IMG/VR virus record: IMGVR_UViG_3300005614_000005 | Location: 1-64,000 of that record | Reading direction: 5' to 3' (one strand) | DNA: 64,000 bases | Source: a virus | Taxonomy: Duplodnaviria > Caudoviricetes | In this document: positions 19,709 to 47,601 of the stretch, in pieces | Layout: every line of letters begins with the position of its first letter | Numbering within the stretch: position 1 is the stretch's first letter | Made by a program: the position numbers and the translations under genes | Notes under the pieces: generated by a model | Database searches by the model: none | Seen by the model: the letters and a program-made list of their open reading frames with translations, nothing else | Told to the model about the DNA's origin: nothing

Positions 19709-20230
19709 GTGCCCGCCGGAATCGTTTACGCACTCTGTGAGCCCACCACTGGCGAGGTTCGGTATGTAGGACAGACGGTGCGGCGAATGAAGGACCGGCT
19801 TCGTAGTCACGTCCGATCTTCACGAACACGTAACCACCACGTCTCGCTCTGGATACGAAGGTTGGGGCGTGCCCCAGAGTGGTTCACGTTGGAGCACTGC
19901 GCCACAAAGGCTGAGCTTGATGAGGCCGAGCGCTTCTGGATCTCGTGGTACCGCCGCAACACTCCGTTCCGGCTCACCAACCTGACAGCGGGTGGTGATG
20001 CAGGAACACTAGGGTGGGTGCCAACCGCTGAGACGCGGGAGAAGCTGCGCGCTGCAACAATCGCAAACTGCAACCGCGAGGGCTGCGCACGAGGAGGACG
20101 ATGGCACCGGGGACGCACGCTTTCTCCTCAGCATCGTGCAAGAATCTCTGCGGGACTTCGTGGCAAACCAAAGAGTCGTGCGCATCGCGAAGCTCTGAGC
20201 GCGGCACGCCTGAGGAAGTCACATGCCTGA
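19709..20230 (+). CDS. GIY-YIG homing endonuclease with NUMOD3-like tail
   Basis: GIVYAL..RYVGQT..RL.SH; E..WI; LTN...GG; ETREKL and HRARIS repeats. Confidence 0.85.
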   Translation: MPAGIVYALCEPTTGEVRYVGQTVRRMKDRLRSHVRSSRTRNHHVSLWIRRLGRAPEWFTLEHCATKAELDEAERFWISWYRRNTPFRLTNLTAGGDAGTLGWVPTAETREKLRAATIANCNREGCARGGRWHRGRTLSPQHRARISAGLRGKPKSRAHREALSAARLRKSHA

Positions 20231-21557
20231 GAGACCGAAGCGTGTCATATATGGTAAGATCGGGCGCAGTGTAATCCTCGATCCCGCGAAGTGGGGACCT
20301 GTCGGAGGGGATCAAGAGCCCAGCCACCTCCTCTACCTCCTCGCCGCACGGCATCCCGACGTGGAGTTCGTTGTCGGCGGACGCTACGCAGTCGCGAAGG
20401 GGCAGGAGCTCCCGCCGAACATCGTGCTGCCCGAGCTCCCGAAGATGCGGACCCGCAACCGTTACGTCAAGGGTGTCCGCCACTTCGACGGGTCGGTGAA
20501 CCCCTGGGAAGACCTGACCGCGATCCTGCGGCCGTACTTCTTGGAGGACGGGGCGAACGTCCAGGTGCTCATGTGGGCCGGTCAGATGGGGACCTCGAAC
20601 GTCCCGATCCCGCGCGTTGAGAATCGGGGTGAACTCACTGAGCCGCAAGACTCCTTCATGAACTACGTTGCGCCGATCACGCTGAACATCAACGCGTGGC
20701 GCGACGAGGATCCGATCGGCCGCGAGGAGGTGTGGGTCCAGTCGGACGTCCGCAACTACCTCAAGTGCCGCGAGCTCAAGTGGCCCCCACGCCACCCCAT
20801 CGTCTCGCAGTTCAACCAGACCCGCAAGGCAAAGCACGAGCGTTGGGGCGACACGCGAAACCCCGCCGAGCTGGGGTTCGACGCGGAGTGGGTACCCGAG
20901 GGTGGCGTCTGGCTCGCACCCCACCACTACGAGTACACGGGACTCGAGGTCATCGCGATCCCCGACGGCTGGGGACCCGAGCTCGACCACGGAGAGCGCG
21001 AGAGCTTCGGGATCCTCATCAACGAAAGCCGGTCGAACGTCGCGCTCGACCGGCCGTCGCTCGTGCGCGACTGGGTCGTCCCCCTGAAACCGTCGTGGAT
21101 CATCGGGAAGTGGCTGCCGAAGGGCGCCGAGATTGCCCGCATCGAGCTGCCGCAGCCCTGCCACCACTCCGAGGTCGGGAAGCTCGTCGGGTCCGTCCGG
21201 TCCACCTTCATGACGCCCGGTAGCGGCTCACGCTGGCCGACCATGAAGGCACACGAGTCCTTCCGCGTCGGGACCATCTGCTTCATGCACCCCGAGTACG
21301 ACGGGCAGGGCCACATCATCCCGACCCGCAAGCAGCTCGAAGCCGGCGCCTGGGAGACCGAGCCGAACCTTCGTGCGCTGGCCGAGTGGCTACGGCCCGC
21401 CACGCCGGAGGACTTGGCGGCGCGGGTCAGGGCCGTGGATGAAAGCCCCGAGACTTACGACTGGCTGCGCGCGGCGCAGCTCGACCTCGAGTCGCGGTAC
21501 ATCGCCGCGGAACGCGGACTCAGCACCATCGAGACGCGACTTGGGTTGCGGCAGTGA
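20223..21557 (+). CDS. GT-B glycosyltransferase resembling T4 DNA beta-glucosyltransferase
   Basis: C-terminal PTMKAHESFRVGTICFMHPEYDGQGHII...EDLAARVRAV...LRAAQ parallels the T4 BGT C-terminus as recalled (TLRVWET...IDEEFDTKHRII...ELIDRVNEL...Q). Confidence 0.65.
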   Translation: MPERPKRVIYGKIGRSVILDPAKWGPVGGDQEPSHLLYLLAARHPDVEFVVGGRYAVAKGQELPPNIVLPELPKMRTRNRYVKGVRHFDGSVNPWEDLTAILRPYFLEDGANVQVLMWAGQMGTSNVPIPRVENRGELTEPQDSFMNYVAPITLNINAWRDEDPIGREEVWVQSDVRNYLKCRELKWPPRHPIVSQFNQTRKAKHERWGDTRNPAELGFDAEWVPEGGVWLAPHHYEYTGLEVIAIPDGWGPELDHGERESFGILINESRSNVALDRPSLVRDWVVPLKPSWIIGKWLPKGAEIARIELPQPCHHSEVGKLVGSVRSTFMTPGSGSRWPTMKAHESFRVGTICFMHPEYDGQGHIIPTRKQLEAGAWETEPNLRALAEWLRPATPEDLAARVRAVDESPETYDWLRAAQLDLESRYIAAERGLSTIETRLGLRQ

Positions 21558-22072
21558 CAAGCCTCTCAGACGAGCTATCTAGGTTGGGCACCGACACCGC
21601 TCGTCACGGGATCCGGCCCAGTGCCGGCGGGGCCACCGTGCCCCGCCGGTCCGCCGATCCGATCGTAGGGTGGCGCACGTGGTACGTCGACCGCGACGGT
21701 GACACGCTGCTCCGCTCGCCCTCCTTCCCCGTCTACCTCTGGCCGGCGCGGCAGCGCGCCGAGGCGGTCTGCCTGGGTAGCGAGCGACGCGAGGAAGCGG
21801 CCCACCTCGCTCCCGAACTCGACTGCACGTGTGGACTACACGCGGGCCGAGAGGAGCCGCCAGACGCCGTCTCAGGGTCGCTCAGCGTCCTGACCGTCAC
21901 CGGTCAGGTATCGCTCTGGGGACTCGTGATCCCGCACGAGCACGGCTGGCGTGCCGAGTACGCGTATCCCTACGAGCTACACGTTCACCCGGGCATCGCG
22001 GGCGTGGAGGAGGCGCAGCGAATCGCGCGCGTGTTGAGTTCCGTCTACGGCGTGGAAGCATGTGTACGATGA
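21554..22072 (+). CDS. Conserved hypothetical protein (GWRxW / CxCG family)
   Basis: IVGWRTW, CTCGLHA, GQVSLWG..IPHEHGWRAEYA. Confidence 0.7.
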   Translation: MTSLSDELSRLGTDTARHGIRPSAGGATVPRRSADPIVGWRTWYVDRDGDTLLRSPSFPVYLWPARQRAEAVCLGSERREEAAHLAPELDCTCGLHAGREEPPDAVSGSLSVLTVTGQVSLWGLVIPHEHGWRAEYAYPYELHVHPGIAGVEEAQRIARVLSSVYGVEACVR

Positions 22073-22478: not shown

Positions 22479-22664
22479 ACGGAGGTCACGTCAAGGAGCA
22501 CCACTTCATCCAGCTCTCACCCACCGAGGGCGGCGCACTGCGTGCGCTGCTCGAGGACGTCCGCGATGACGCGAAGGCGTGGCGCATCGGGGTCACCGAG
22601 CTGCAGGACGAAGTGGCGGAGGGTATCATCAAGGTACTGGAACTCGGAGATGGAGAGGAAGCTA

Positions 22665-23300
22665 ATGTCGGGTAGTGCACACATCTCCGCAGATCAGGCG
22701 CAGCACGACCTCCTGCTCGCGCTCGCGCGCCAGGCCACTGCCTCAGCTGAGGCGCTCGAGCGCGACAACGCCGACGAACGCGCCAGCGCCGACGAGGCCA
22801 AGGTCTTCACGTTCGTCGCTGAGATCGAGTCGTGCTCCGTCGGCGAGTGCATCGAGACACTCGGCGAATGGCACCGCAAGGAGCCAGGCAGCCCCATCAC
22901 CCTCGCCCTCAACTCCCCTGGCGGCAGCGTGTTCGACGGGCTGGCGCTCTTCGACTACATCCGATGGCTCGTGAGCGAGGGTCACGACGTCACCACGCTC
23001 GGCATCGGGCAGATCTTCTCGATGGGCGCGGTCGTCCTGCAGGCGGGCTCGCGCCGCGTCATGACCCCGAACTCGTGGCTCATGATCCATGAAGTCTCCA
23101 CCGTCGCGGCGGGTAAGGGCGCGCAGATCGGCGACGAGTCCAAGCTCGTCGGTCGACTCCAGTCGCAGCTTCTTGGGATCCTCGCCGAGCGGAGCGAGTT
23201 CTCGGCACGACAGGTGAAGACGCGGTGGACGCGGAAGGACTGGTATCTCTCGGCACAGGAGGCGCTCAAGCATGGCTTCATCGACTCGGTCCAAGAGTGA
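22665..23300 (+). CDS. ClpP-like protease (S14)
   Basis: LNSPGGSVFDG, FSMG (Ser), MIHE (His), KDWYLSAQEA...GFID. Confidence 0.88.
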   Translation: MSGSAHISADQAQHDLLLALARQATASAEALERDNADERASADEAKVFTFVAEIESCSVGECIETLGEWHRKEPGSPITLALNSPGGSVFDGLALFDYIRWLVSEGHDVTTLGIGQIFSMGAVVLQAGSRRVMTPNSWLMIHEVSTVAAGKGAQIGDESKLVGRLQSQLLGILAERSEFSARQVKTRWTRKDWYLSAQEALKHGFIDSVQE

Positions 23301-27208: not shown

Positions 27209-29311
27209 GTGCTTCCGCCCTCTGGATCGCGACCGCTCGCCAAGGCGGGGTGGAATGAGACCATTCATCCCCGAGCGGTACACGGCAAGTTCACGTTCAC
27301 CGCTAAACAGGTAGGCCGCGCAGCGCGCCACCCACACCAGGTCGCCGACCTGCTACCCGGCACACTCGTGCACGTCAAGCACGCGGGTAGCGGCCACGTG
27401 GTGCAGAGCTCGGGAAAGCACGTGACGGTCCGTCACACCGGCGGAGTCACCCGGACGCATCCACGGGTGCTCGTGAAGGTGGGAAAAACGAAGAAGCCAG
27501 CGCACGAAAGGAAGCTCAAGGGCCGGCGCGGTCGCATCGAGGGGCGGCAGCCGTACCGACTGCGCGCGTTTCGGATGCACAAACCCAAGGTGAACGGAAA
27601 GGTCATCAAGGAGGCGGACCACGAGGGCGTGATGGTCGCGCTCTACCCCGACGGGACGACCCGCGACGCACTCGCGCGGGACGGCGGCGAGCCCGCCGAC
27701 GACCTGCACGTTACCCTCTCATACCTGGGTAGCGCACACGAGCTCGACACGGGTCAGCGAGCGCAGCTCGTCCACATCGTGAACGACTGGGCGAAGGCGA
27801 CGCCCCCGCTCGACGCGAGGGTGGGTGGCGTGGGGCACTTCGATGAGGGAGGTTGCACCTACGCGAGCGTGGACTGCCCACACCTCAACGAGGCGCGTGC
27901 TGAGCTTCACTCACGACTGCGCGCGGCCGGGCTACCGGTCGCCGACGATCACGGGTTCACTCCACACATCACGCTTGCGTACGACGAGGATGAGGCAGAA
28001 GGGCTAGAGAGCGTCCCTGCGGCAAGCTTCAAGGTCGACGGGCCAACCGTCATGATCGGTGGCGAACGACACGAGATGAAGTTCTCGGGCGTCTCCAAGG
28101 GCGACGAATCCGCTGGGATGCGTGTCTCGGGTGATGGGCAAGCGACCCCGACCTCGCCGCTCACCTCGCGTGACTTCAACGGTCCCGGTGAGGCGCCGCT
28201 CACGATCCGGCAAGGTAGCTCGGGTCGGCGCCGACGCGCGCGGACAACCTGCCCGATCTGCGGGCAGAAGCTCAACGAAAACGGCCGCTGCCCCACCCAC
28301 GGCGTCGTGGCGCGGTTTCAGAAGGCGCGTGGCGACGTACACCAGTGGGAGACCTTGCTCGAGCAAGGTCACCTCAAGCAGGCGTTCGACACCGCGCGCG
28401 AACGGTTCGAGTCCGCAGCGCAACCCCACCTCCAGGAGCTCGCGCGCAAAGCGGTGCGCTCCGCACTCGGCCCAGGAGCTGAGGCGGCGCCGCCGGTGTC
28501 GGATGGTAACGGGCTCACGCGTGCGCTGGCTGGTGAGACGGATCGGCTTTACGAGGTGGGGCGCGACACGGTACTACTTGAGCTTCGGAACCAGCACCAC
28601 CGCGCCGGCACTGGACTGCGGCCCGTAGCTCCGGAAGATGTGACGCAACGTCGCGCACACGTCACGAGCGCAGCCGGTGTTGTGGCACGAAACATCGCGC
28701 GTGCCGCCGTCTCGGCAGCGGCAGCTGAGGCGTCGCGGCGTCCTCTCGTCCGCAAGGACAAGCCGCAGCCCCCGCCGAAACTCAGAGATGCCACGGGTCA
28801 CGACCGCTGTCAAGTCTGCCTCATGTTCGATGAAGGAAAGTGCTGGGGGTACGGCGAGTACAAGGTCCGTCCCGACCAGGTGTGCGACAGCTTCTCGCAG
28901 TCGAAGGTTCGCAAGGACGAAGAAGGTGACGAAGAAGAACTCGAACCCACCGCGGAAGAACGTCACAACCGGCTCTACGCCGCTGCGCTCGCCGCCGCCG
29001 AATCGGCGCTCCGCAACGGCGCGCTCCTGACCGCCGCCTACGCGATCAACTCGGGGCGCAGCGACGCCGCCGAAACGAACGCGGGGCAGATCGCACAGGC
29101 GATCTACACGTCCGTCATGGATGAGAACACCTGCGACGAGTGCGCCTCCGACAACGGCACCGCCGTGCAGGTCGGGTCCATCGAATACTACGACATGTCG
29201 CCGCCCAACGAAGACTGCGAGGGCGGGGACCGCTGTCGCTGCGTGTGGATCTACACCGTCAGCGACAGCCTCGCCGCGTTCGGGCTGCCCGAAGAAGGCG
29301 AAGAACCCTAG
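27209..29311 (+). CDS. Multidomain head protein: 2H phosphoesterase, Cys-rich modules and MuF-like C-terminus
   Basis: LHVTL and PHITL (2H); CPICG..CPTH; CQVC..CW..VCD; D.NTCDEC...PP..C.GGDRCRC (MuF/gp7-like). Confidence 0.8.
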   Translation: MLPPSGSRPLAKAGWNETIHPRAVHGKFTFTAKQVGRAARHPHQVADLLPGTLVHVKHAGSGHVVQSSGKHVTVRHTGGVTRTHPRVLVKVGKTKKPAHERKLKGRRGRIEGRQPYRLRAFRMHKPKVNGKVIKEADHEGVMVALYPDGTTRDALARDGGEPADDLHVTLSYLGSAHELDTGQRAQLVHIVNDWAKATPPLDARVGGVGHFDEGGCTYASVDCPHLNEARAELHSRLRAAGLPVADDHGFTPHITLAYDEDEAEGLESVPAASFKVDGPTVMIGGERHEMKFSGVSKGDESAGMRVSGDGQATPTSPLTSRDFNGPGEAPLTIRQGSSGRRRRARTTCPICGQKLNENGRCPTHGVVARFQKARGDVHQWETLLEQGHLKQAFDTARERFESAAQPHLQELARKAVRSALGPGAEAAPPVSDGNGLTRALAGETDRLYEVGRDTVLLELRNQHHRAGTGLRPVAPEDVTQRRAHVTSAAGVVARNIARAAVSAAAAEASRRPLVRKDKPQPPPKLRDATGHDRCQVCLMFDEGKCWGYGEYKVRPDQVCDSFSQSKVRKDEEGDEEELEPTAEERHNRLYAAALAAAESALRNGALLTAAYAINSGRSDAAETNAGQIAQAIYTSVMDENTCDECASDNGTAVQVGSIEYYDMSPPNEDCEGGDRCRCVWIYTVSDSLAAFGLPEEGEEP

Positions 29312-31245: not shown

Positions 31246-33756
31246 ATGTCAGTACCGTTCCTCGACAAGGACCTCCTCCGCCAAGAACTTCCGATCGCGT
31301 TTGTCTGCGAACAGTTGGGCATCCAGCTCAACGAGCAGCACGAGGCGATCTGCATCTGGCACGATGATCACACGCCGTCGTTTCGGATCTGGACGGACGA
31401 CCGCGGGGTGGAGAAGTTCGGGTGCTTTCCCTGCGGAGTCCAGGGCGACGTGTACGACCTGCTCCGCCGCGCGGAGGGGCTCTCGTTCACCGACTCGCTA
31501 CTCCGTGCGGAGCAGTTGCGCGAAGAGCTCCCCGAAGGGTACGCGTCGATGGTCACGCGCGCCGCGAAGGTGGAGTTCGAGCAGGAGGCGTGTGAACGGT
31601 TTGTCGCCGACGGACTGGCACGCGCGTCGAGCCCCGAATCGGAGGGCTGGATGTGCGTCGTCCTGGGCCTCGTTGACGAGCGACGTGACCTCGAGTACCG
31701 CCGCGCGGTGGACCGCTACGTCCGCGAACGGTGGCGGTGGGGCATCGACCACGCTGGCAACACGATCATGCCGCACTACGACGCGCTCGGTCGCCTGACC
31801 GGCGCGAAGGTGCGGGCGTTCGACGGGCGACGGTGGAGCTTCCCCGGCAGCGCGTTTCCCGCGCTCTACGGCGCGTGGGTGCAGCGGCACACCCGGTTCG
31901 TCCTCCTGACCGAGGGCGAGTCAGACGCTGCGTTCGCCACGATCCAGAACCCGCCCGTGGACGTACTGGGGCTGCCGGCGGGGGCCGGAAAGTTCCGCGA
32001 CGAGTGGGCACAACTGGAGGCCGACATCTACTTCCTCGCGTTCGACGCCGACGACGCGGGCGTGTCGGCGACGCGTACTTGGCTGGAGGCGCTCAACGGC
32101 CGCGACGTCCGCGTCTGCCGGCTTCCCCGCACCCACGACCTACGTTCGGCGCGGCCCGCCATCTTGGACCTGCTCCAGCACGCGCAGCGACCCTCGCTTA
32201 CGAACGGCCAGGTGCTCGTGGCGAACGGGCGCTTTGAACGCATCACGACCCAGCAGCCGAAGCCGCTCTGCAGTTGGTATCTCGAGCCGGTAGCTCGACT
32301 CGAAGCGATGGACGAGTCGGTGATGCCGGCGCTCGAGGTCAATGTTGTCCGTAATGAACAACCGACGTCCGACGTGATTACCCTCGCCGACCTCCACTCG
32401 GCGAGCAAGCTTCGGACGTGGGCCGCCACCCGCGCACTTGACTGCACCGCGTCTGATCCCGACGTGCAGCAGATGGCGTCGTACCTCCTCGCCCGGTCGT
32501 CGGTGCTGCCGGAGGTGTTCCAGACATCGCGTGTTGGAGTGCACGACGCGCCCGAGCGGTACAAGTACGCGGGCCGCACCGTCGTGACCCCCACGAACAG
32601 CATCGGCCGGCTCCCGTGGAAGTACGTCGGGTCAGGCGAGGCGGTCGGCCACGTTCATCTCGAAGATGACGGACCCTACGACTGGGGGTGGATCAGCGCG
32701 TTCCTCGCGCTCACCGACCGCTCCATCACCTCGCCGCTACTGGCCTGGCTCGTCGCCGCGACACGACGTAACGAGGTCGAGCAGTTTCCCCTCCTCTTCC
32801 TCGGCGGTAGCTCGGGATCAGGCAAGACGACCACCGCGCGCCTCGCCACGCAGCTCTTCGGGTCGACACTCTCCGCGAGCCTCGCCTCCATCACGCAGTT
32901 CGCACTCATCCGAATGCTCGCACTCACCACGACCGTGCCCGTGTTCGTGGACGAGTGGAGCCTTCAGTCTCGTGAGGACGCACGCGGAGCGATCCAGTCG
33001 GTCGTCACCAGCATCTACGAGGGTGGCGTCACCACGCGCGGTCGCGCCGACCTGTCGGTCGTGGAGTTCAAGCTCTCGTCGCCAATCCTCATCGCCGGCG
33101 AGGATTCCTTCCACCTCGACCGCGAGGCCGAGCGCATGGTCGCGCTCCGAATGCGTCACAACTCGCAGAACTACGACGCGCTCAAGGCGCTCGTCGGCCA
33201 GCCGTTGCAACGCTTCGCGCGCTGGTATTACGACTGGCTCGTCACCGCCGACAACCTCCCGCCGATGCCGTCCACCGCGCTGACGCGGCCCGAGTATAAC
33301 CGCGCGGTGCTGGATGCCGGGTGGATGACGTTGCAGCAGTTCGCCCGGTACGTCTCAGACCGCGACGCGCAGGTCATTCCCGACCTCGGTGAGCTCGACC
33401 TGACGCAGCTCGAGCAGGCCGACGACGACCGCGAGAACGAGTACGAGGCGTTCGTAATGGAGGGGCTAGCACTACGCGACGCAGAAGGACTCCCGCTCGT
33501 TTGGCCCGACGTACAGGGGCGCGGCACGTTCATCCGCTTCCGCCCGTTGACGTCGTGGGTGAACATGAACCGCGTGGACGTGGAGTTGGCTGGTCGCTCG
33601 CGGGCCATGCGCTCCTACTTCGCGGACCGGTACGTACTGACCGACGAACGCGTGAAAGCTCCGTTCAGTGACCGGCCCATCCGTGCCACGTTGGTTGCCG
33701 GCTTGCACGTAGCTCCGGAGCTAGAGTCGACCGAGATGGAGACCCCAGTCGAATGA
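31246..33756 (+). CDS. DNA primase-helicase (CHC2 Zn finger, TOPRIM, P-loop NTPase)
   Basis: CIWHDDHTPS..CFPC; TEGESD; FDADDAG; GSSGSGKTT; VFVDE. Confidence 0.9.
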   Translation: MSVPFLDKDLLRQELPIAFVCEQLGIQLNEQHEAICIWHDDHTPSFRIWTDDRGVEKFGCFPCGVQGDVYDLLRRAEGLSFTDSLLRAEQLREELPEGYASMVTRAAKVEFEQEACERFVADGLARASSPESEGWMCVVLGLVDERRDLEYRRAVDRYVRERWRWGIDHAGNTIMPHYDALGRLTGAKVRAFDGRRWSFPGSAFPALYGAWVQRHTRFVLLTEGESDAAFATIQNPPVDVLGLPAGAGKFRDEWAQLEADIYFLAFDADDAGVSATRTWLEALNGRDVRVCRLPRTHDLRSARPAILDLLQHAQRPSLTNGQVLVANGRFERITTQQPKPLCSWYLEPVARLEAMDESVMPALEVNVVRNEQPTSDVITLADLHSASKLRTWAATRALDCTASDPDVQQMASYLLARSSVLPEVFQTSRVGVHDAPERYKYAGRTVVTPTNSIGRLPWKYVGSGEAVGHVHLEDDGPYDWGWISAFLALTDRSITSPLLAWLVAATRRNEVEQFPLLFLGGSSGSGKTTTARLATQLFGSTLSASLASITQFALIRMLALTTTVPVFVDEWSLQSREDARGAIQSVVTSIYEGGVTTRGRADLSVVEFKLSSPILIAGEDSFHLDREAERMVALRMRHNSQNYDALKALVGQPLQRFARWYYDWLVTADNLPPMPSTALTRPEYNRAVLDAGWMTLQQFARYVSDRDAQVIPDLGELDLTQLEQADDDRENEYEAFVMEGLALRDAEGLPLVWPDVQGRGTFIRFRPLTSWVNMNRVDVELAGRSRAMRSYFADRYVLTDERVKAPFSDRPIRATLVAGLHVAPELESTEMETPVE

Positions 33757-34625
33757 GCGAAGATCACTCCTCGGGACTCTCCCGTTTCTTCACCCAGGCC
33801 TCCAAGCTACCGCTCCTCACCGCCACCCAAGAGGTCGAGCTAGCGGAACGTCGTGACAAGGGCGACAAGCGCGCCGAACAGAAGCTCGTGGAACACAACA
33901 TCCGCCTCGCGATCTCCATCGCGAAGCACTGGCGGAACCGCGGGCTCCCGCTCGAGGACCTCGTGCAAGAGGGGATGCTTGGACTCCACCGCGCCGCCAC
34001 CAAGTTTGACCCGAGCAAGGGCAACCGCTTCTCCACCTACGCGAGTTGGTGGGTCACCCACTTCGTCCAACGCGCCGTGCAGAACACAGGGCAGACGATC
34101 CGCACACCCGGTCACGTCACTGCGCGGCGCCTGACTCTCGAAAACCACCTGATGGAGTTTCCCGACACGTCGCACGAGGAGCTCGCGGTGATCGCGAAGT
34201 GCACGGTCGATGAGGTGCAGGAGGCGCTCGACGCGGGACGCATCTCAGCGTCGCTCGACTCACTACTGGACGACTCGCTCTCCGCGCACGAGATCCTCGC
34301 CGACCCAAACGCGGTGCGACCCGACGAGATCGTGGTTCAGGACCGTCGGGTGCGTGACGCGCTCGGTAAGCTCGGTGAGTTGGAACGGCGCGTCCTTGAA
34401 CTTCGCTTTGGCTTCGACGGCCCGGTTCGCAAGCGCGCGGACGTGGCGGAGATTCTCGAGGTCAGCCAGCGCTCCGTTCAGCACGCGCAGAAGGTCGCAC
34501 TCCTACGGCTGCGCGAGCTTCTCCACGACGAGCGAATGACCCCGATCACCAGCGCCGCGCTGCGCGCAGCCGCGCTGGACAAGACCGAGCCAATTTGCTC
34601 CCGACCGGAACCCGCACCATGCTGA
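33753..34625 (+). CDS. Sigma-70 family RNA polymerase sigma factor
   Basis: LVEHNIRL, DLVQEGMLGL, KFDPSKGNRFSTYASWW, region 4 ERRVLELRFG. Confidence 0.95.
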   Translation: MSEDHSSGLSRFFTQASKLPLLTATQEVELAERRDKGDKRAEQKLVEHNIRLAISIAKHWRNRGLPLEDLVQEGMLGLHRAATKFDPSKGNRFSTYASWWVTHFVQRAVQNTGQTIRTPGHVTARRLTLENHLMEFPDTSHEELAVIAKCTVDEVQEALDAGRISASLDSLLDDSLSAHEILADPNAVRPDEIVVQDRRVRDALGKLGELERRVLELRFGFDGPVRKRADVAEILEVSQRSVQHAQKVALLRLRELLHDERMTPITSAALRAAALDKTEPICSRPEPAPC

Positions 34626-35548
34626 TCATCATCGAGGGACTTGACCGTACCGGAAAGTCAACGCTCGCGGGCTTCATCGCGATGAAAAACAAGCCAACGG
34701 CGTTGCTCCACTTCAGCAAGCCCGAGAAGCACCCACTCTTCGAGTACGTCGAGCCGCTCCTCGCGTACGACCCGTGCGCACCCGGGAACGTGGTCCTCGA
34801 CCGCGGCCACCTGGGTGAGAGCGTTTGGCCGAGCGTGTTCGGGCGGGGGTCAGAGCTTGACGAGCCGACGCGGCGTTGGATCGAGCTCTTCCTGCTGTCG
34901 CGCGGCGCCGTACTCGTCCACGCGAAACGCGACCTGCAGGAGCTGATCGACGCTTGCGCGGCTGACGACGAGCCAATCCAGGGCGAGCAGATCGTGGACG
35001 CAAACGCACACTTCCGCGTGGCGCTCTCCGAATCGGTCCTGCCCCAGTTTCCCTTCTGCCACTCATCACCCGACCGTGAACTGCAGATCCTCGACATCCT
35101 GGCCCAGGGGATGCTCGACCAGATGCGCGCCGCGCTGATCACGCAGGTCACCTACGAGTGGATCGGCAACCCCCGCCCACACACCCTCCTCGTGGGGGAC
35201 CAGGGTAACCTCGGTCCCGGCCGCCGTGCTGACTGGCCGCTCCCGTTCGTGCCGTTCGGCGGCACGTCGGGCCACTTCCTCTTCGATGAGTTGGGGATCG
35301 GCGACCGGTGGAGGCACGTCGCGGTCGTGAACTCGCGGCGGCCAGACGGCGCCGTCGAGGACCTGCCTCGGCTTCACGCGTTGATGGGCTACCCTCGGGT
35401 CGTGACCCTCGGCGAGAAGGCGCACCACGTCGCGTCAGACCTCGGTGTCGAGCACGCGCAGGTGCCCCACCCGCAGTACGTGCGCCGCTTTGAGCGCCGG
35501 CGCGGTCGTGGCTACTACGCGGGGCTCATCTTGGAGGCAACATCGTGA
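34619..35548 (+). CDS. dNMP (thymidylate-type) kinase fused to a UDG-superfamily-like domain
   Basis: IEGLDRTGKST and LDRGHLGE; C-terminal VGDQ..PF..SG..L, VVN, VTLGEKA, PHP. Confidence 0.8.
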   Translation: MLIIIEGLDRTGKSTLAGFIAMKNKPTALLHFSKPEKHPLFEYVEPLLAYDPCAPGNVVLDRGHLGESVWPSVFGRGSELDEPTRRWIELFLLSRGAVLVHAKRDLQELIDACAADDEPIQGEQIVDANAHFRVALSESVLPQFPFCHSSPDRELQILDILAQGMLDQMRAALITQVTYEWIGNPRPHTLLVGDQGNLGPGRRADWPLPFVPFGGTSGHFLFDELGIGDRWRHVAVVNSRRPDGAVEDLPRLHALMGYPRVVTLGEKAHHVASDLGVEHAQVPHPQYVRRFERRRGRGYYAGLILEATS

Positions 35549-36387
35549 ACATCGAAATCGCAGACCTGCGGGGCGGCTACATCACCCTCGTGGAAGCAAT
35601 CCAGCAGCACGGCAAGCCCGTCGCGCCGCGCGGGATGCCGACGCTCGAGCTCCTGAACGCGACGGTCACACTGCACGACCCGAGTGACGCGATGCCCGTC
35701 GGGATTGGGAGGAAACCGAACCTCGCGATCGGCGCGGCCGAGGCGCTTCAGCTCATCGGCGGGTTCAGCGACCCCGAGATGATGGCGTCGATCACCAAGA
35801 ACTTCGAACGCTTCTTCGACGGCGGCGTGCTCTCCGGCGCCTACGGTCCACGTATCCGGACCCAGCTCGAGCACGTGGTCGAGCGCCTCAAGCAGGACCC
35901 CGACACCCGCCAGGCCATCGCGGTCATCTGGGATCCACTCCACGACGGGATCGGGTCGGTGCCTCGTGACCTGCCCTGCACCCTCGTGCTGCACTTCGTG
36001 ATCCGCGACGGGAAGCTCTCGCTCTGCACCACGATGCGCAGTAACGACGTGTGGTGGGGTGTCGGATACGACTTCTTCCAGTTCACCCAGCTCCAACTCT
36101 CGGTGGCACGGATCTTGAAAGTCAAGGCTGGCCCCTACTACCACCACGCCACCTCGCTGCACATGTACGAGCGCGACTTCCCCGCTGCCGAGGAGCTTCA
36201 CCAGCCCGAGTCACGCTCGGCGCCCGATCCGCGTCCACGCGGCCTGAAAGCGTCGTCCGTCGCGGAACTGCAAGAGAACGCGCGCCGGATCTGGAACCTG
36301 GAGTCGGTAATCGGCGAGGGCTTCTTGGAGCACTGGTACCGCGAGCAGCTCCGGCCCCACGTGCGTGTGAGTCGTGTGCAAGCCTAA
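35545..36387 (+). CDS. Thymidylate-synthase-family enzyme, dCMP-type (probable dCMP hydroxymethylase)
   Basis: YGPRI, DTRQA, LPC (catalytic), MRSNDVWWGVGYD (Asp at the ThyA Asn position), SLHMY. Confidence 0.85.
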   Translation: MNIEIADLRGGYITLVEAIQQHGKPVAPRGMPTLELLNATVTLHDPSDAMPVGIGRKPNLAIGAAEALQLIGGFSDPEMMASITKNFERFFDGGVLSGAYGPRIRTQLEHVVERLKQDPDTRQAIAVIWDPLHDGIGSVPRDLPCTLVLHFVIRDGKLSLCTTMRSNDVWWGVGYDFFQFTQLQLSVARILKVKAGPYYHHATSLHMYERDFPAAEELHQPESRSAPDPRPRGLKASSVAELQENARRIWNLESVIGEGFLEHWYREQLRPHVRVSRVQA

Positions 36388-36706
36388 CGTTCACGGCGAG
36401 TGGAAGATGCGCACCGAGGCGGGTCGCGAGACATGTAGGTGTTGCACGTACTGCGGCGGCATCCACCCTGAGGACCTCGTCACCTTGCTCAACGAAGGCG
36501 TGCGTCTCCAGAACACGGATTGGAAGTACGGTTGGCCGCACAAGTTCTACGTGATCGGTCCCGACGGTAGCTGGCTCGGCAAGTTCTACACGACGCACAT
36601 GCAGGAGTCCTGCGTGACCGACGAGATCCGCGAGCGCGTGCAGCGCGCCACCGGTATCCTCTACCGCGTCCACGACGGGCACCTGCACTACTGCTGCGTA
36701 GGGTAA
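36374..36706 (+). CDS. Cys-rich hypothetical protein
   Basis: CTYCGGIHP and WKYGWPHKFY. Confidence 0.6.
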   Translation: MCKPNVHGEWKMRTEAGRETCRCCTYCGGIHPEDLVTLLNEGVRLQNTDWKYGWPHKFYVIGPDGSWLGKFYTTHMQESCVTDEIRERVQRATGILYRVHDGHLHYCCVG

Positions 36707-38454
36707 TGGGCGACCTCGCGGACGTCCAGCTTACGTTCGTCGAGACGCTGGACGACCTCGACAACTTCCGCGCGTGGCTCGGCCAACGGCGCGAGTGGCT
36801 CGGCGCCGACATCGAGACGACCGGCCTGAACTGCGGACGTGACAAGGTCCGCCTCATGCAGTTCGGTGACCTCGACCAGGGGTGGGCGATTCCGTGGGAG
36901 GACTACCGCGGCGCGATCAAGGACCTCCTGCCCCGGTATAAGGGCCGGATCGTTTTCCACAACGCCATCTTCGACACGAAGTTCCTCAAGCGGGAGGGCG
37001 TTCACATCCCGCAGGAGTGGTGCCACGACACGATGGTCATGTGTCACCTCCTCGACCCGCGCACCAGCATCGGCCTCAAGAGCGCGGCCGCGCGGTACGT
37101 GGACCGACGCGCGTGGATCGGTAAGGACGCGCTGAGCGAAGCCTTCCGCCACGGGAAATGGGACTGGGCGACAGTCCCCGTTGACCATCCCTCCTACTGG
37201 CTCTACTCCGCGCTCGACACCGTCCTGACCGCGCACCTCGCCGCGGCCATCTGGCCCAAGGTCGAGCCCTTCCGCAAGGTGTACGAGGTCGAGATGGCGT
37301 GCATCCACGTACTTCGCGACGCGGGGCTGACCGGCGTTCGGATCGACATGCCGTACGTCGAAGAGAAGCGTGTCGAGCTTTTGCTCGAGCTGGAGCAGCT
37401 CTCGGCGCAGATCCCGTGCGAACCGTCCAAGGACGCGCAGGTCGTGAAGATGTTGCAGGAACGCGGCGCCGTACTCACCCACAAGACCAAGTCGGGCGCC
37501 ATCTCCGTGGACGACGAAGCACTCGCCGAGGTGGAGCCGTCCTTCCCCGACATCGTCAAGCCGCTCCGCGAGTGGCGGACCAAGTCACGACTCGTGTCGT
37601 CGTACCTCGACAACATGCTCTCGATGAACGTGGACGGAATCCTGCACCCGTCGGTCAAGCCGCTCGGCGCGCGAACTGCGCGCATGTCAGTGACCGAGCC
37701 CGCACTCCAGACGCTGCCCCGTGGTCGCACGATCCGCGACGCATTCATCTCGCGTGAGGGCCAGACGCTGATCCTCGCGGATTACGAGCAGGCCGAGCTT
37801 CGGGTGCTGGCGAGCTTCGCGCACGAGACGTCGATGATCGAGGCGTTCATGCGCGGCGAGGACCTGCACCGGTGGGTCGCCTCGCAGGCGTACCAGAAGA
37901 CGACCGAGGAAGTCACCAAGCCCGAGCGGCAGGTGTCGAAGAACACGCAGTTCGCGCGGGTCTACGGCGCCGGCAACGCGAAGATCGCGCTCACCGCTGG
38001 CGTGCCGGTTGCCGTTATCGACCAGTTTGTCATGCGGTACAACCAGCTCTTCCCGGGCATCCCGGAATTCACAAACGCAACGATCCGCGAAGTGCTCAGC
38101 ACGCAGTTCAACGGCGAGAGTAAGTGCGGGTACGTCGAGACGATCCTCGGCCGCCGGCTCCCCGTCGAGCACAACAAGTCATACGTCGGGGTCAACTACA
38201 AGGTCCAGTGTTCGGCGACCGCCGACCTGCTCAAGTTGAAGCTCGTGGAGCTCGACGCGGCGGGGCTCGGCGAGTTCATCCGCCTTCCAGTCCACGACGA
38301 GATCATGTTTGAGGTCCCAGACGACCAGCTCGATGAAGTCGAGGAGGTCGTGCGCCGCGTGATGCCTGAGACCAAGCTCTTCGAGTGCCCGATCACGGTG
38401 GATGTAGAGCGCACGAAGTGCTGGGGCCACAAGTACGGCTGGGCTGAGAATTGA
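36706..38454 (+). CDS. Family A DNA polymerase with 3'-5' exonuclease
   Basis: DIETTG, HNAIFD, YSALD; motif A ADYEQAELR, motif B K...F...YG, motif C VHDE. Confidence 0.95.
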   Translation: MGDLADVQLTFVETLDDLDNFRAWLGQRREWLGADIETTGLNCGRDKVRLMQFGDLDQGWAIPWEDYRGAIKDLLPRYKGRIVFHNAIFDTKFLKREGVHIPQEWCHDTMVMCHLLDPRTSIGLKSAAARYVDRRAWIGKDALSEAFRHGKWDWATVPVDHPSYWLYSALDTVLTAHLAAAIWPKVEPFRKVYEVEMACIHVLRDAGLTGVRIDMPYVEEKRVELLLELEQLSAQIPCEPSKDAQVVKMLQERGAVLTHKTKSGAISVDDEALAEVEPSFPDIVKPLREWRTKSRLVSSYLDNMLSMNVDGILHPSVKPLGARTARMSVTEPALQTLPRGRTIRDAFISREGQTLILADYEQAELRVLASFAHETSMIEAFMRGEDLHRWVASQAYQKTTEEVTKPERQVSKNTQFARVYGAGNAKIALTAGVPVAVIDQFVMRYNQLFPGIPEFTNATIREVLSTQFNGESKCGYVETILGRRLPVEHNKSYVGVNYKVQCSATADLLKLKLVELDAAGLGEFIRLPVHDEIMFEVPDDQLDEVEEVVRRVMPETKLFECPITVDVERTKCWGHKYGWAEN

Positions 38455-45491: not shown

Positions 45492-45890
45492 ATGCGCGAC
45501 CTGCTCGCACGGCAGCGGAGGCTTCAAGTCGAAGCCTTCGCTGTCGACCCGCACGAGTTGACTGGTGAGGACCGCGTCGAGTACGTTCGGATGAACGTCC
45601 TTGCGGTCGTAGACGAGGCGATGGAGATGCTCCACCACGTCAACGGCTGGAAGAACTGGCAGACCGAGCGCTCGCGCGCCGGCGAGATCGCGGATCTTCA
45701 AGAGTACATCGGCGAGGGCGTCGATCTCCTGCACTTTGTGGCCAATTTGCTGAACGTTGCAGGAGTCGATGACCAAGAACTCGACGCGCTCTTCGCGAAA
45801 AAGCAGCGCGTGAACGCACAGCGGCAGGCCCTCGGGTACGAGGGTCACGGCGACGACTTCGCCGCGGCGCACCCGCAGGTGATGGCGTGA
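45492..45890 (+). CDS. Dimeric all-alpha dUTPase/dCTPase
   Basis: Q..LQ, DEAMEM, WKNW, EGVDLLHF, K..VN.QRQ..GY. Confidence 0.85.
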   Translation: MRDLLARQRRLQVEAFAVDPHELTGEDRVEYVRMNVLAVVDEAMEMLHHVNGWKNWQTERSRAGEIADLQEYIGEGVDLLHFVANLLNVAGVDDQELDALFAKKQRVNAQRQALGYEGHGDDFAAAHPQVMA

Positions 45891-46324
45891 AGCTCGCGGC
45901 ATCCGAGCGCCCGTGCAGCGGCTGCGCGCACTCCGCGAGTGGGATTCCGTATCCTGGGCATCCGTCGGGTGAGCGACCTTGCTGCTTCTGCGTCCGCAAC
46001 CCCGAACTGGCGCGCACCAGCGACGTCTGCCGCGACAGCGACGGTAACGGGGTCTGGTACGACGGCAAGACACCCGCGTACAAGACGCCGATGGACAACT
46101 ACATCGCGACCGACCGTCTCCAGCAAGAGCGGCTCTTCGCCGTGCTTGGTGCCATCGAGCGTGGAGAACTGACGGTCAAGCCGCGGCAAACACTCGCTGA
46201 GTTCTACGGGGTAGATTGTGATGTAGGTATGGGCGACCCCAAGACCATGTGTTGTGAGGGCGGCCCGTTTCCCGGCGGCCACAGCGGTGGGTGCATTCTT
46301 CTCGTGGGGGTTTCCATATCATGA
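45887..46324 (+). CDS. Cys-rich hypothetical protein
   Basis: RPCSGC and RPCCFC; overlaps both neighbours. Confidence 0.55.
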   Translation: MKLAASERPCSGCAHSASGIPYPGHPSGERPCCFCVRNPELARTSDVCRDSDGNGVWYDGKTPAYKTPMDNYIATDRLQQERLFAVLGAIERGELTVKPRQTLAEFYGVDCDVGMGDPKTMCCEGGPFPGGHSGGCILLVGVSIS

Positions 46325-47601
46325 CTCATCCGTTCGTTGACGTGCAAGGTCTCGCCGGCGCCTGGACGCTTGGCACGGTGCAGGCGGGCTTCGAGTTGAA
46401 GCACCGCGTGTCGCTGCCCGGCGGCTTCGGCGACGCCGCCATCGACGCGAACCGGCACCTCGTCGGCGACGGGTGGGCGCAGGAGACCGGCGACCCGGTC
46501 GAAGCCTGGACGCCTCAGGAGGGCGTCGCCTACATCTGCGGCACGCCGCCGTGCTCGGGCTTCTCGCTACTGAACAGCGCGAAGGGATCCAACGCGCGCG
46601 GTCCCGAGTCCAGCATCAACAACTGCATGAAGGAGCTCGTCAAGTACGCCGGTCAGTGCACCGGCTCCGACGGGCGTCCCGGCCCTCAGATCGTCAGCTT
46701 CGAGAGCGTGCAGGGCGCCTACACGCAGGGCCGCGGGCTCATGCAGTACCTGCGCGACATGCTCAACGAGACCTCCGGCTCGCACTACAGCCTGTCTCAC
46801 GTCCTGATGTCGGGCGCGTCCGTGGGCAACGCGCAGATGCGGCACCGCTTCTACGTCGTCTTCCACCGGATCCCGTTCGGCGTGGACCAGCCTCAGGAAC
46901 GGAAGGTCGTCACCTACGCGGACGCCATCGAGGATCTGATCGGCGGCACACTCCAGTGGGAGCCGCAGCCGTACCCCACGCACGACACGCTACCCGACGG
47001 CAGGCCCGACCTCTCGCCGTACGCCACCCCACTTCGCTCGTCGTCTGGCAACTTCGACGCGCACGTGACCATCGACCACGGCCGCTCCGCCTCCGTCATC
47101 AAAGAGGTGTGGGACGTCTGGAAGCCAGGTCAGAGCCTGCCCGAAGCGCTGCTCGCCGCGGGCCTCCGTCCTCCGACGCTCGAAAAAAGCTTCGTGGAGA
47201 ACTTCGAAGGGACCGGCAAGCCCGGCTACAAGGGCTGGAGCTGGCCCGTCAAGGTGCGCCCGGACCGACCGGGGTACGTGCTGACGGGCGGGGGTATCCA
47301 CGGGTTCGTCCACTGGGCCGAGCCTCGTCTCCTCTCAGCGCGCGAGTGCTCGCGTCTGATGGGCTACCCTGACGACTGGACCTGGCCTACCAACTCCGTC
47401 AACCAGGCAAGCGCCTGGATCGGCAAGTGCTGCCCCGTCACGTCAGGACGATGGATCTCATCGTTCGTACGGCGTGCGCTGGACGGCGATCCCGCGTCAC
47501 CGCTCGAGCAGATCGGGCCGCGTGAGTTCTATTACAACTGCACCCTGGCCTACAAGAAGTGGCCTGGTGGCGCCGTCCCCAAGCGGGTAAGATCGAGGTA
47601 G
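46321..47601 (+). CDS. DNA cytosine-C5-methyltransferase homolog with degenerate SAM-binding motifs
   Basis: Motif IV GTPPCSGFS, VI FESVQG, VIII QMRHR, IX RECSRLMGYPDD; motif I DVQGLAGAW and X IGKCCP are atypical. Confidence 0.85.
   Translation: MTHPFVDVQGLAGAWTLGTVQAGFELKHRVSLPGGFGDAAIDANRHLVGDGWAQETGDPVEAWTPQEGVAYICGTPPCSGFSLLNSAKGSNARGPESSINNCMKELVKYAGQCTGSDGRPGPQIVSFESVQGAYTQGRGLMQYLRDMLNETSGSHYSLSHVLMSGASVGNAQMRHRFYVVFHRIPFGVDQPQERKVVTYADAIEDLIGGTLQWEPQPYPTHDTLPDGRPDLSPYATPLRSSSGNFDAHVTIDHGRSASVIKEVWDVWKPGQSLPEALLAAGLRPPTLEKSFVENFEGTGKPGYKGWSWPVKVRPDRPGYVLTGGGIHGFVHWAEPRLLSARECSRLMGYPDDWTWPTNSVNQASAWIGKCCPVTSGRWISSFVRRALDGDPASPLEQIGPREFYYNCTLAYKKWPGGAVPKRVRSR

Follow-up and report, generated by a model that had tools for sequence, protein, structure and literature searches.

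A predicted DNA glycosyltransferase of the T4 beta-glucosyltransferase lineage encoded by an uncultured high-GC phage

A 64,000-nucleotide stretch of phage DNA (positions 1 to 64,000 of IMG/VR record IMGVR_UViG_3300005614_000005; hereafter the window) contains at positions 20223-21557 a gene for a 444-residue protein that, as judged by profile comparison and structural modeling, is a very distant member of the T4 beta-glucosyltransferase (BGT) lineage. The protein is predicted to add a sugar to 5-hydroxymethylcytosine (5hmC) of the phage DNA, a reading to which a probability of roughly 0.75 is assigned; here, the acceptor is deduced from genomic context, principally a thymidylate synthase (TS) homologue of the T4 gp42 type. 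The chances that the sugar transferred is glucose are about even.

Results

Gene and relationship to T4 BGT

A preliminary description of the window, made from the DNA sequence alone, had placed a gene at 20223-21557, and the open reading frame (ORF) was recovered there on the + strand, with ATG at 20223 and a TGA stop codon at 21555-21557. Its GC content at the three codon positions (0.67/0.46/0.87) is like that of other real genes of the window, in which overall GC is 64-68%, and the ORF is a genuine gene. The parent viral record comprises 93,167 bp with direct terminal repeats and has an estimated completeness of 100%. The features of the gene are as follows.

20223..21557, + strand: BGT-like GT-B glycosyltransferase, 444 residues (profile, fold and conservation)
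20212..20218, + strand: Shine-Dalgarno-like GAGGAAG, 4 nt upstream of the transferase ATG (read from the sequence)
20745..20753, + strand: candidate catalytic-base motif D175-V-R177 (D-x-R) (secondary-structure order and conservation)
21051..21257, + strand: predicted nucleotide-sugar binding core, codons R277 to E345 (alignment with BGT and conservation)

The relationship to BGT was assessed with a profile of 58 family members (A1), a 30-sequence alignment of PF09198, the curated T4 BGT family (A2), and a more diverse family alignment with members 21-32% identical to the window protein (A3); the T4 b-gt sequence itself was taken from the T4 genome. With A1 as the query against 177,635 PDB sequences, T4 BGT was the sole match (E = 0.032), with profile positions 335-418 aligned onto BGT residues 266-339. 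This alignment bears out the resemblance to the donor-binding half of BGT that had been perceived in the C-terminal segment (TMKAHE...GTICFMHPEYD.QGHII...EDLAARVRAV). Comparison of the family with the lone T4 BGT sequence by hhalign gave an E value of 1e-4, A1 matched A2 with 95.2% probability (E = 2.9e-8), and A3 matched A2 with 98.7% probability (E = 2.4e-16) over 338 columns that spanned BGT residues 1-351. Identity between the transferase and T4 BGT is about 9-12%.

An AlphaFold2 (AF2) model of the transferase was obtained with a predicted local distance difference test score of 94.4 and a predicted template modeling score of 0.92. The modeled protein is of the GT-B fold, consisting of two Rossmann-like domains with C-terminal helices that cross back. 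Foldseek returned GT-B enzymes exclusively, and the top four structures in VIA-align were all T4 BGT entries (Z 22.1-22.9, root mean square deviation 3.4-3.8 Å, 305-314 residues), the best superposition covering 314 of the 351 BGT residues at Z 22.9 and 3.8 Å. The next family was GT4, represented by BshA (Z 19.0), and lower scores were observed for T4 alpha-glucosyltransferase (AGT; Z 16.4) and the phage HY126 glycosyltransferase (9iqz; Z 16.1). In the viral model library BFVD, the second-ranked match is annotated "DNA beta-glucosyltransferase." The preliminary description had proposed such a search by structure and profile against T4 BGT and had made its claim depend on a GT-B fold; such a fold was obtained, and no solved structure scored above BGT. 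It had also called the N-terminal half divergent, which holds for the sequence, yet this half has the BGT fold in the model.

T4 BGT (gene b-gt; PF09198, CAZy GT63; PDB 1BGT, 1J39, 1QKJ and 1NZD) is thus the best structural match, and both proteins are GT-B enzymes. The T4 enzyme is the smaller of the two (351 versus 444 residues), the transferase containing insertions of ~90 residues in total at about 52-107, 120-142, 196-238 and 360-395.

An apparently virus-restricted sequence family

As a single sequence, the 444-residue protein gave no match in Pfam (hmmscan, E up to 10), PHROGs, NCBIfam or PDB (phmmer). Its 59 homologues, of 29-91% identity, are all unnamed, and none has a precomputed Pfam domain. 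At least 476 cluster representatives (50% identity clusters, E up to 0.001) were found in a library of 1.84 billion proteins, and IMG/VR yielded 86 and 316 confirmed stretches for two sub-alignments of the family. The nearest protein-language-model clusters are 100% viral, with the PF09198 clusters among them, and the family appears to be restricted to viruses. When 50,697 deposited phage records were searched, blastn returned nothing and tblastn a sole relative, in Pseudoalteromonas phage vB_Psh_XG4 (25% identity); the phages RB69 and DLP3 gave no tblastn match. Of 41 distant family members, 17 are recognized by the generic model PF13524. Taken as a whole, these comparisons point to a branch of the BGT lineage that is large, apparently confined to viruses and missed by Pfam, PHROGs and NCBIfam.

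Predicted donor-binding and catalytic residues

Conservation was read from 99 aligned family rows. Residues G29, D30, G120, D175, R277, G295, W297, P332, K342 and D360 are invariant, T340 is invariant or nearly so, and E345 is present in 95 of the 99 rows. Alignment with BGT gives the pairs (transferase/BGT) R277/R195, T340/T267, K342/R269, E345/E272 and D360/D287. In BGT, R195, R269 and E272 are ligands of the UDP phosphates and ribose, and R277, K342 and E345 are the predicted donor-binding equivalents in the transferase.

For comparison of secondary structure, T4 BGT was also folded with AF2. The elements of the transferase (beta1 7-13, alpha1 31-43, beta2 48-51, beta3 113-119, alpha3 143-162 and beta4 170-173) follow the order of those in BGT (beta1 2-7, alpha1 18-32, beta2 36-41, beta3 61-65, alpha3 78-89 and beta4 94-98). 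D175, within the sequence D-V-R, lies two residues past beta4, like the catalytic D100 of BGT (D-I-R), and the invariant D30 and the mostly acidic E32 stand at the start of alpha1, like BGT E22. From this order of elements, D175 is a candidate catalytic base equivalent to D100.

A predicted gp42-type hydroxymethylase and other candidate partner genes

The genes of the same phage that bear on the proposed function are the following.

35545..36387, + strand: TS homologue with gp42-type signature (PF00303, 71.8 bits; signature)
34595..35548, + strand: P-loop nucleotide-kinase-like gene overlapping the TS start (weak; dTMP-kinase models, ~18-20 bits)
36706-38454: family-A DNA polymerase (Pfam)
45492..45890, + strand: MazG-type NTP pyrophosphohydrolase/dUTPase-like gene, candidate dCTPase (profile match)
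46291..47601, + strand: divergent C5-cytosine-methyltransferase (C5-MTase)-like gene (PF00145)

The TS homologue has D-L-P-C at the catalytic cysteine and the motif RSNDVWWGVGYD, compared with RSNDVVFGFRND in T4 gp42; D142, C145, R165, S166, D168 and D176 do not vary among the aligned sequences, of which T4 gp42 is one. Among TS homologues, Asp at the position of ThyA N177 denotes the use of dCMP; a hydroxymethyl instead of a methyl product is indicated by Asp or Glu at the L143 position, and a 5-hydroxy-dCMP synthase by Asn at the D169 position (D169N) (Lee et al. 2026, PMC13326640). Given that the window protein has Asp at the L143, D169 (R165-S-N-D168) and N177 positions, it is of the gp42, 5-hydroxymethyl-dCMP, type by signature and is predicted to be the dCMP hydroxymethylase that makes the acceptor base. 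A gp42-type dCMP hydroxymethylase is thus encoded alongside the BGT-like enzyme in this phage as in T4.

The kinase-like gene, which is syntenic in 23 of 79 related loci, may phosphorylate 5hm-dCMP, a prediction drawn from a weak match. The genome contains one member of the transferase family (own-genome match, E = 4.5e-90). No NTP_transferase-family gene was found in the phage genome, and the donor is therefore likely to be a nucleoside diphosphate (NDP)-sugar of the host, of which UDP-glucose is the simplest guess.

Co-occurrence and gene order in relatives

Co-occurrence was assessed in 78 larger IMG/VR records that contain the transferase, of which 35 belong to a high-GC clade (median 61% GC) and 43 to a low-GC clade (median 35% GC), the latter being a distant sub-family of mostly fragmentary records. 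A TS-family gene is present in 73 of the 78, counts that represent about three independent lineages (the high-GC clade, the low-GC clade and XG4) rather than 78 events. By clade, the values are 34/35 for high GC, including all 27 records that are at least 90% complete, and 39/43 for low GC. Asp occupies both the D169 and N177 positions in 30 of 30 high-GC TS proteins examined, and the full gp42 signature (L143D, D169 kept, N177D) was observed in 55 of 56 parsed homologues. Conversely, the transferase is found in none of 25 large records that contain close relatives of the window TS, 5 of which are at least 90% complete; the model used in this search recovers the gene of the window phage itself at E = 4.5e-90. 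The transferase needs the hydroxymethylase but not the reverse, and this fits a tailoring step on the hydroxymethylase product; an asymmetry of this kind in co-occurrence is a clean computational mark of a step that acts downstream.

The remaining TS homologue of the 56, from the relative L193 (IMG/VR record G070, TS at 34536-35249), reads K-S-N-N...D, which is the D169N signature. This suggests that the L193 relative may have switched to a 5-hydroxycytosine acceptor.

In relatives, the transferase lies inside a nucleotide-modification cassette, and this is so in two unrelated lineages. At low-GC loci, a gp42-like TS gene precedes the transferase by ~1.9 kb (57 of the 60 loci in which the flank is long enough) and a C5-MTase-like gene follows it by ~2.4 kb (76/80), together with a HAD phosphatase (66/80) and a nucleotidyltransferase-kinase (27/80). 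At high-GC loci, MazG follows the transferase at +2.5 kb (53/79) and the MTase-like gene at +3.0 kb (63/79), the TS gene being located ~8.8 kb upstream. The cultured phage XG4 (PP712099.1, an unannotated record) has a compact modification block (L111:100-6580) in the order gp42-like TS, HAD phosphatase, sugar nucleotidyltransferase-kinase fusion, BGT-like transferase, 368-residue ORF and C5-MTase-like gene. The 368-residue ORF is possibly a second transferase.

The C5-MTase-like gene

The preliminary description had suggested co-occurrence with the TS and MTase homologues as a further check. As well as the TS association given above (73/78), a C5-MTase-like gene was present in all 49 of 49 transferase-bearing records. 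PF00145 scores for the window gene and its relatives range from 30 to 97 bits. The gene is also kept in 20 of 25 related phages that have a gp42-type TS and no transferase. Its distribution therefore follows the hydroxymethylase and not the transferase, in lineages of 35% GC as well as of 61% GC. The two competing or sequential writers on one base that the preliminary description had envisaged would be a possible arrangement, which these counts neither support nor contradict. Between the window protein and that of XG4 (L111:5363-6580) identity is 22% (E = 1e-10), and both contain GTPxCSGxSxLN. No match to Tet_JBP (PF12851) was obtained in the 49 records, but the control genomes gave none either, so that this search is uninformative.

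We put forward only tentatively, and consider rather doubtful, the idea that hydroxymethylase, BGT-like transferase and C5-MTase-fold enzyme form a conserved module in at least two unrelated lineages in which the MTase fold would catalyze a reaction other than methylation on 5hmC or on residual cytosine. Were it correct, cytosine would mature into a novel hypermodified base, or into a mosaic of two, in place of plain glucosyl-5hmC, and the sugar might not be glucose. The role of a C5-MTase fold on DNA in which C5 is already substituted is the more intriguing point.

Position of the gene in the window

The transferase gene is directly flanked by two ORFs.

19709..20230, + strand: GIY-YIG/NUMOD3 homing-endonuclease gene, the stop of which overlaps the transferase start by 8 nt (Pfam and sequence)
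21554..22072, + strand: 172-residue ORF with a 4-nt GTGA overlap with the transferase stop (translationally coupled; sequence)

The preliminary description had set the gene 13 kb from a nucleotide operon. The gene is indeed remote, lying ~14 kb from the TS homologue and 25 kb from the MazG and MTase-like genes. In relatives, the usual place of the transferase is beside MazG and the MTase-like gene, and the GIY-YIG, ClpP and GNAT genes are near it in 0 of 79 related loci. Given that its present neighbors are absent beside the transferase in relatives, the position in the window is a derived one. It is plausible, although speculative, that the flanking homing endonuclease moved the transferase; T4 b-gt likewise abuts a GIY-YIG gene, segA. 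The 172-residue ORF, which gave no family match in library scans, was considered as a partner of the transferase and rejected, since it is kept beside the transferase in just 1 of 79 loci; it is probably not part of the transferase system.

Other genes of the window identified with Pfam include a ClpP-family protease (22542-23300), a 700-residue protein with a 2H phosphoesterase (2',5' RNA ligase/LigT-like) domain and a weak MuF-like C terminus (27209-29311), and a sigma-70-family factor with regions 1.2, 2 and 4 (33753-34625).

Discussion

The data can be accommodated by the following pathway. The MazG-like enzyme and the gp42-type TS homologue would turn the deoxycytidine nucleotide pool into 5-hydroxymethyl-dCMP, from which the adjacent kinase, together with host kinases, would yield a 5hm-dCTP-type triphosphate for insertion into DNA by the phage family-A polymerase. 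After replication, duplex DNA would be bound by the transferase in the cleft that separates its Rossmann domains, with R277, K342 and E345 holding an NDP-sugar, probably a host UDP-hexose and by default UDP-glucose. With D175 as the general base, the sugar would be moved onto the 5-CH2OH of cytosine, presumably with base flipping, and the mechanism is predicted to be inverting. The resulting sugar coat may shield the phage DNA from host nucleases.

Post-replicative glycosylation of a modified cytosine, as put forward in the preliminary description, is supported by the GT-B fold, the apparently virus-only family, the co-occurrence with a gp42-type TS and the synteny of the cassette, the acceptor being a predicted one. 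Several observations weigh against it. The PF09198 model was not matched by the transferase in the Pfam-A hmmscan at E values up to 10, and the N-terminal, acceptor-side domain alone gave a non-significant hhalign E value of 0.07 against BGT. D175 was not paired with BGT D100 in hhalign sequence alignments, and when Dictionary of Secondary Structure of Proteins (DSSP) strings of both AF2 models were included (-ssm 4, ssw 0.11 and 0.5), the alignment of the beta3-beta4 region was still poor; because this weighting did not reproduce the pairing, the equivalence of D175 and D100 is drawn from element order only. In addition, inherited synteny accounts for part of the co-occurrence in each clade, and in this phage the gene stands outside the nucleotide module, among unrelated genes (ClpP, GNAT).

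The enzyme may be a DNA glycosyltransferase that uses a sugar other than glucose, or the base may be processed further by the C5-MTase-like enzyme, such that the product is not beta-glucosyl-5hmC; we regard this as a lesser possibility, although one of some substance. The flanks of the low-GC loci, with HAD (66/80) and nucleotidyltransferase-kinase (27/80) genes, resemble arabinose and heptose donor pathways (PMC13326640; bioRxiv 10.1101/2023.12.21.572611). The ~90 extra residues relative to BGT and the presence of the MTase-like gene in 49 of 49 records also favor such a product, whereas the window phage, having neither an NTP_transferase-family gene nor a second member of the transferase family, must take its donor from the host, and the predicted donor-phosphate and ribose ligands are as in BGT. 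A change of acceptor base, to 5-hydroxycytosine (as in RB69 and DLP3) or 5-hydroxymethyluracil, is very improbable. TS homologues able to make 5-hydroxy-dCMP exist (PMC13326640), and the L193 relative has the D169N signature, but the window TS keeps the Asp of RSND and also has Asp at N177 and L143, a combination that is neither a 5-hydroxy nor a dUMP signature, and 55 of the 56 relatives have the hydroxymethyl-dCMP signature. The RB69 and DLP3 arabinosyltransferases, which act on 5-hydroxycytosine, are GT-B enzymes encoded in clusters with a TS homologue, a nucleotide kinase and a dCTPase (PMC13326640); these systems and the XG4-type relatives have HAD and nucleotidyltransferase-kinase donor genes in common, and the TS homologue of the former contains D169N, unlike that of the window.

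It is unlikely that the acceptor is something other than DNA (a virion protein, a cell-wall polymer of the host or a small molecule), although many phage and bacterial GT-B enzymes have such acceptors. The next-best structures (Z 18-19) are those of GT4 enzymes that have small molecules or lipids as acceptors, the PF13524 matches to 17 of 41 distant members would agree with an acceptor of this kind, the gene lies far from the nucleotide genes in the window, and ~65% of mined phage glycosyltransferase contigs are without a neighboring base-modification gene (bioRxiv 10.1101/2023.12.21.572611). The GT4 retaining enzymes BshA, PimA and TarM do have the GT-B fold, but they superpose with Z 17.6-19.0 over ~315-335 residues, below BGT, and are cellular enzymes with small-molecule, lipid or teichoic-acid acceptors. 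No GT4 chain was matched by the transferase-family profile among the 177,635 PDB sequences; BGT is the top match by structure and the sole match by sequence profile. Moreover, the family appears to be confined to viruses, a transferase that lacks a gp42-type hydroxymethylase partner is very rare, and two unrelated lineages have the transferase gene placed between that of the hydroxymethylase and genes for DNA modification. These observations argue for glycosylation of 5hmC in DNA.

The principle, and metavirome enzymes of this kind, are already published, and the present result refines annotation and provides no new mechanism. GT53, GT66 and GT94 are metavirome GT-B enzymes of 419-429 residues, with BGT as the best PDB match at ~11% identity, for which transfer of unusual sugars to 5hmC in DNA was demonstrated; GT66 and GT94 were assigned to the inverting GT63 enzymes, their proposed catalytic Asp overlapping D100 (bioRxiv 10.1101/2023.12.21.572611). 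Compared by description only, they are similar to the window transferase in size and in their match to BGT. They come from clusters with C5-MTase and TET-type genes, a post-replicative route, whereas the acceptor in the window phage would be supplied by the TS homologue; among the contigs mined with GT-B hidden Markov models, ThyS occurs in 28% and 5mYOX (TET-type) in 10% (bioRxiv 10.1101/2023.12.21.572611).

Genes of this transferase family are currently annotated as hypothetical, and the family could yield new 5hmC-labeling enzymes with other sugar or sequence preferences. T4 is a T4-like myovirus, whereas the window phage has a high-GC genome of ~93 kb that has direct terminal repeats and encodes a family-A polymerase; the hosts of such phages, as judged from one relative binned with an actinomycete metagenome-assembled genome, are likely to be Actinomycetota. 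The T4-style scheme, in which cytosine is converted to 5hmC and then glycosylated, would thereby be extended to uncultured high-GC soil phages that replicate with a family-A polymerase.

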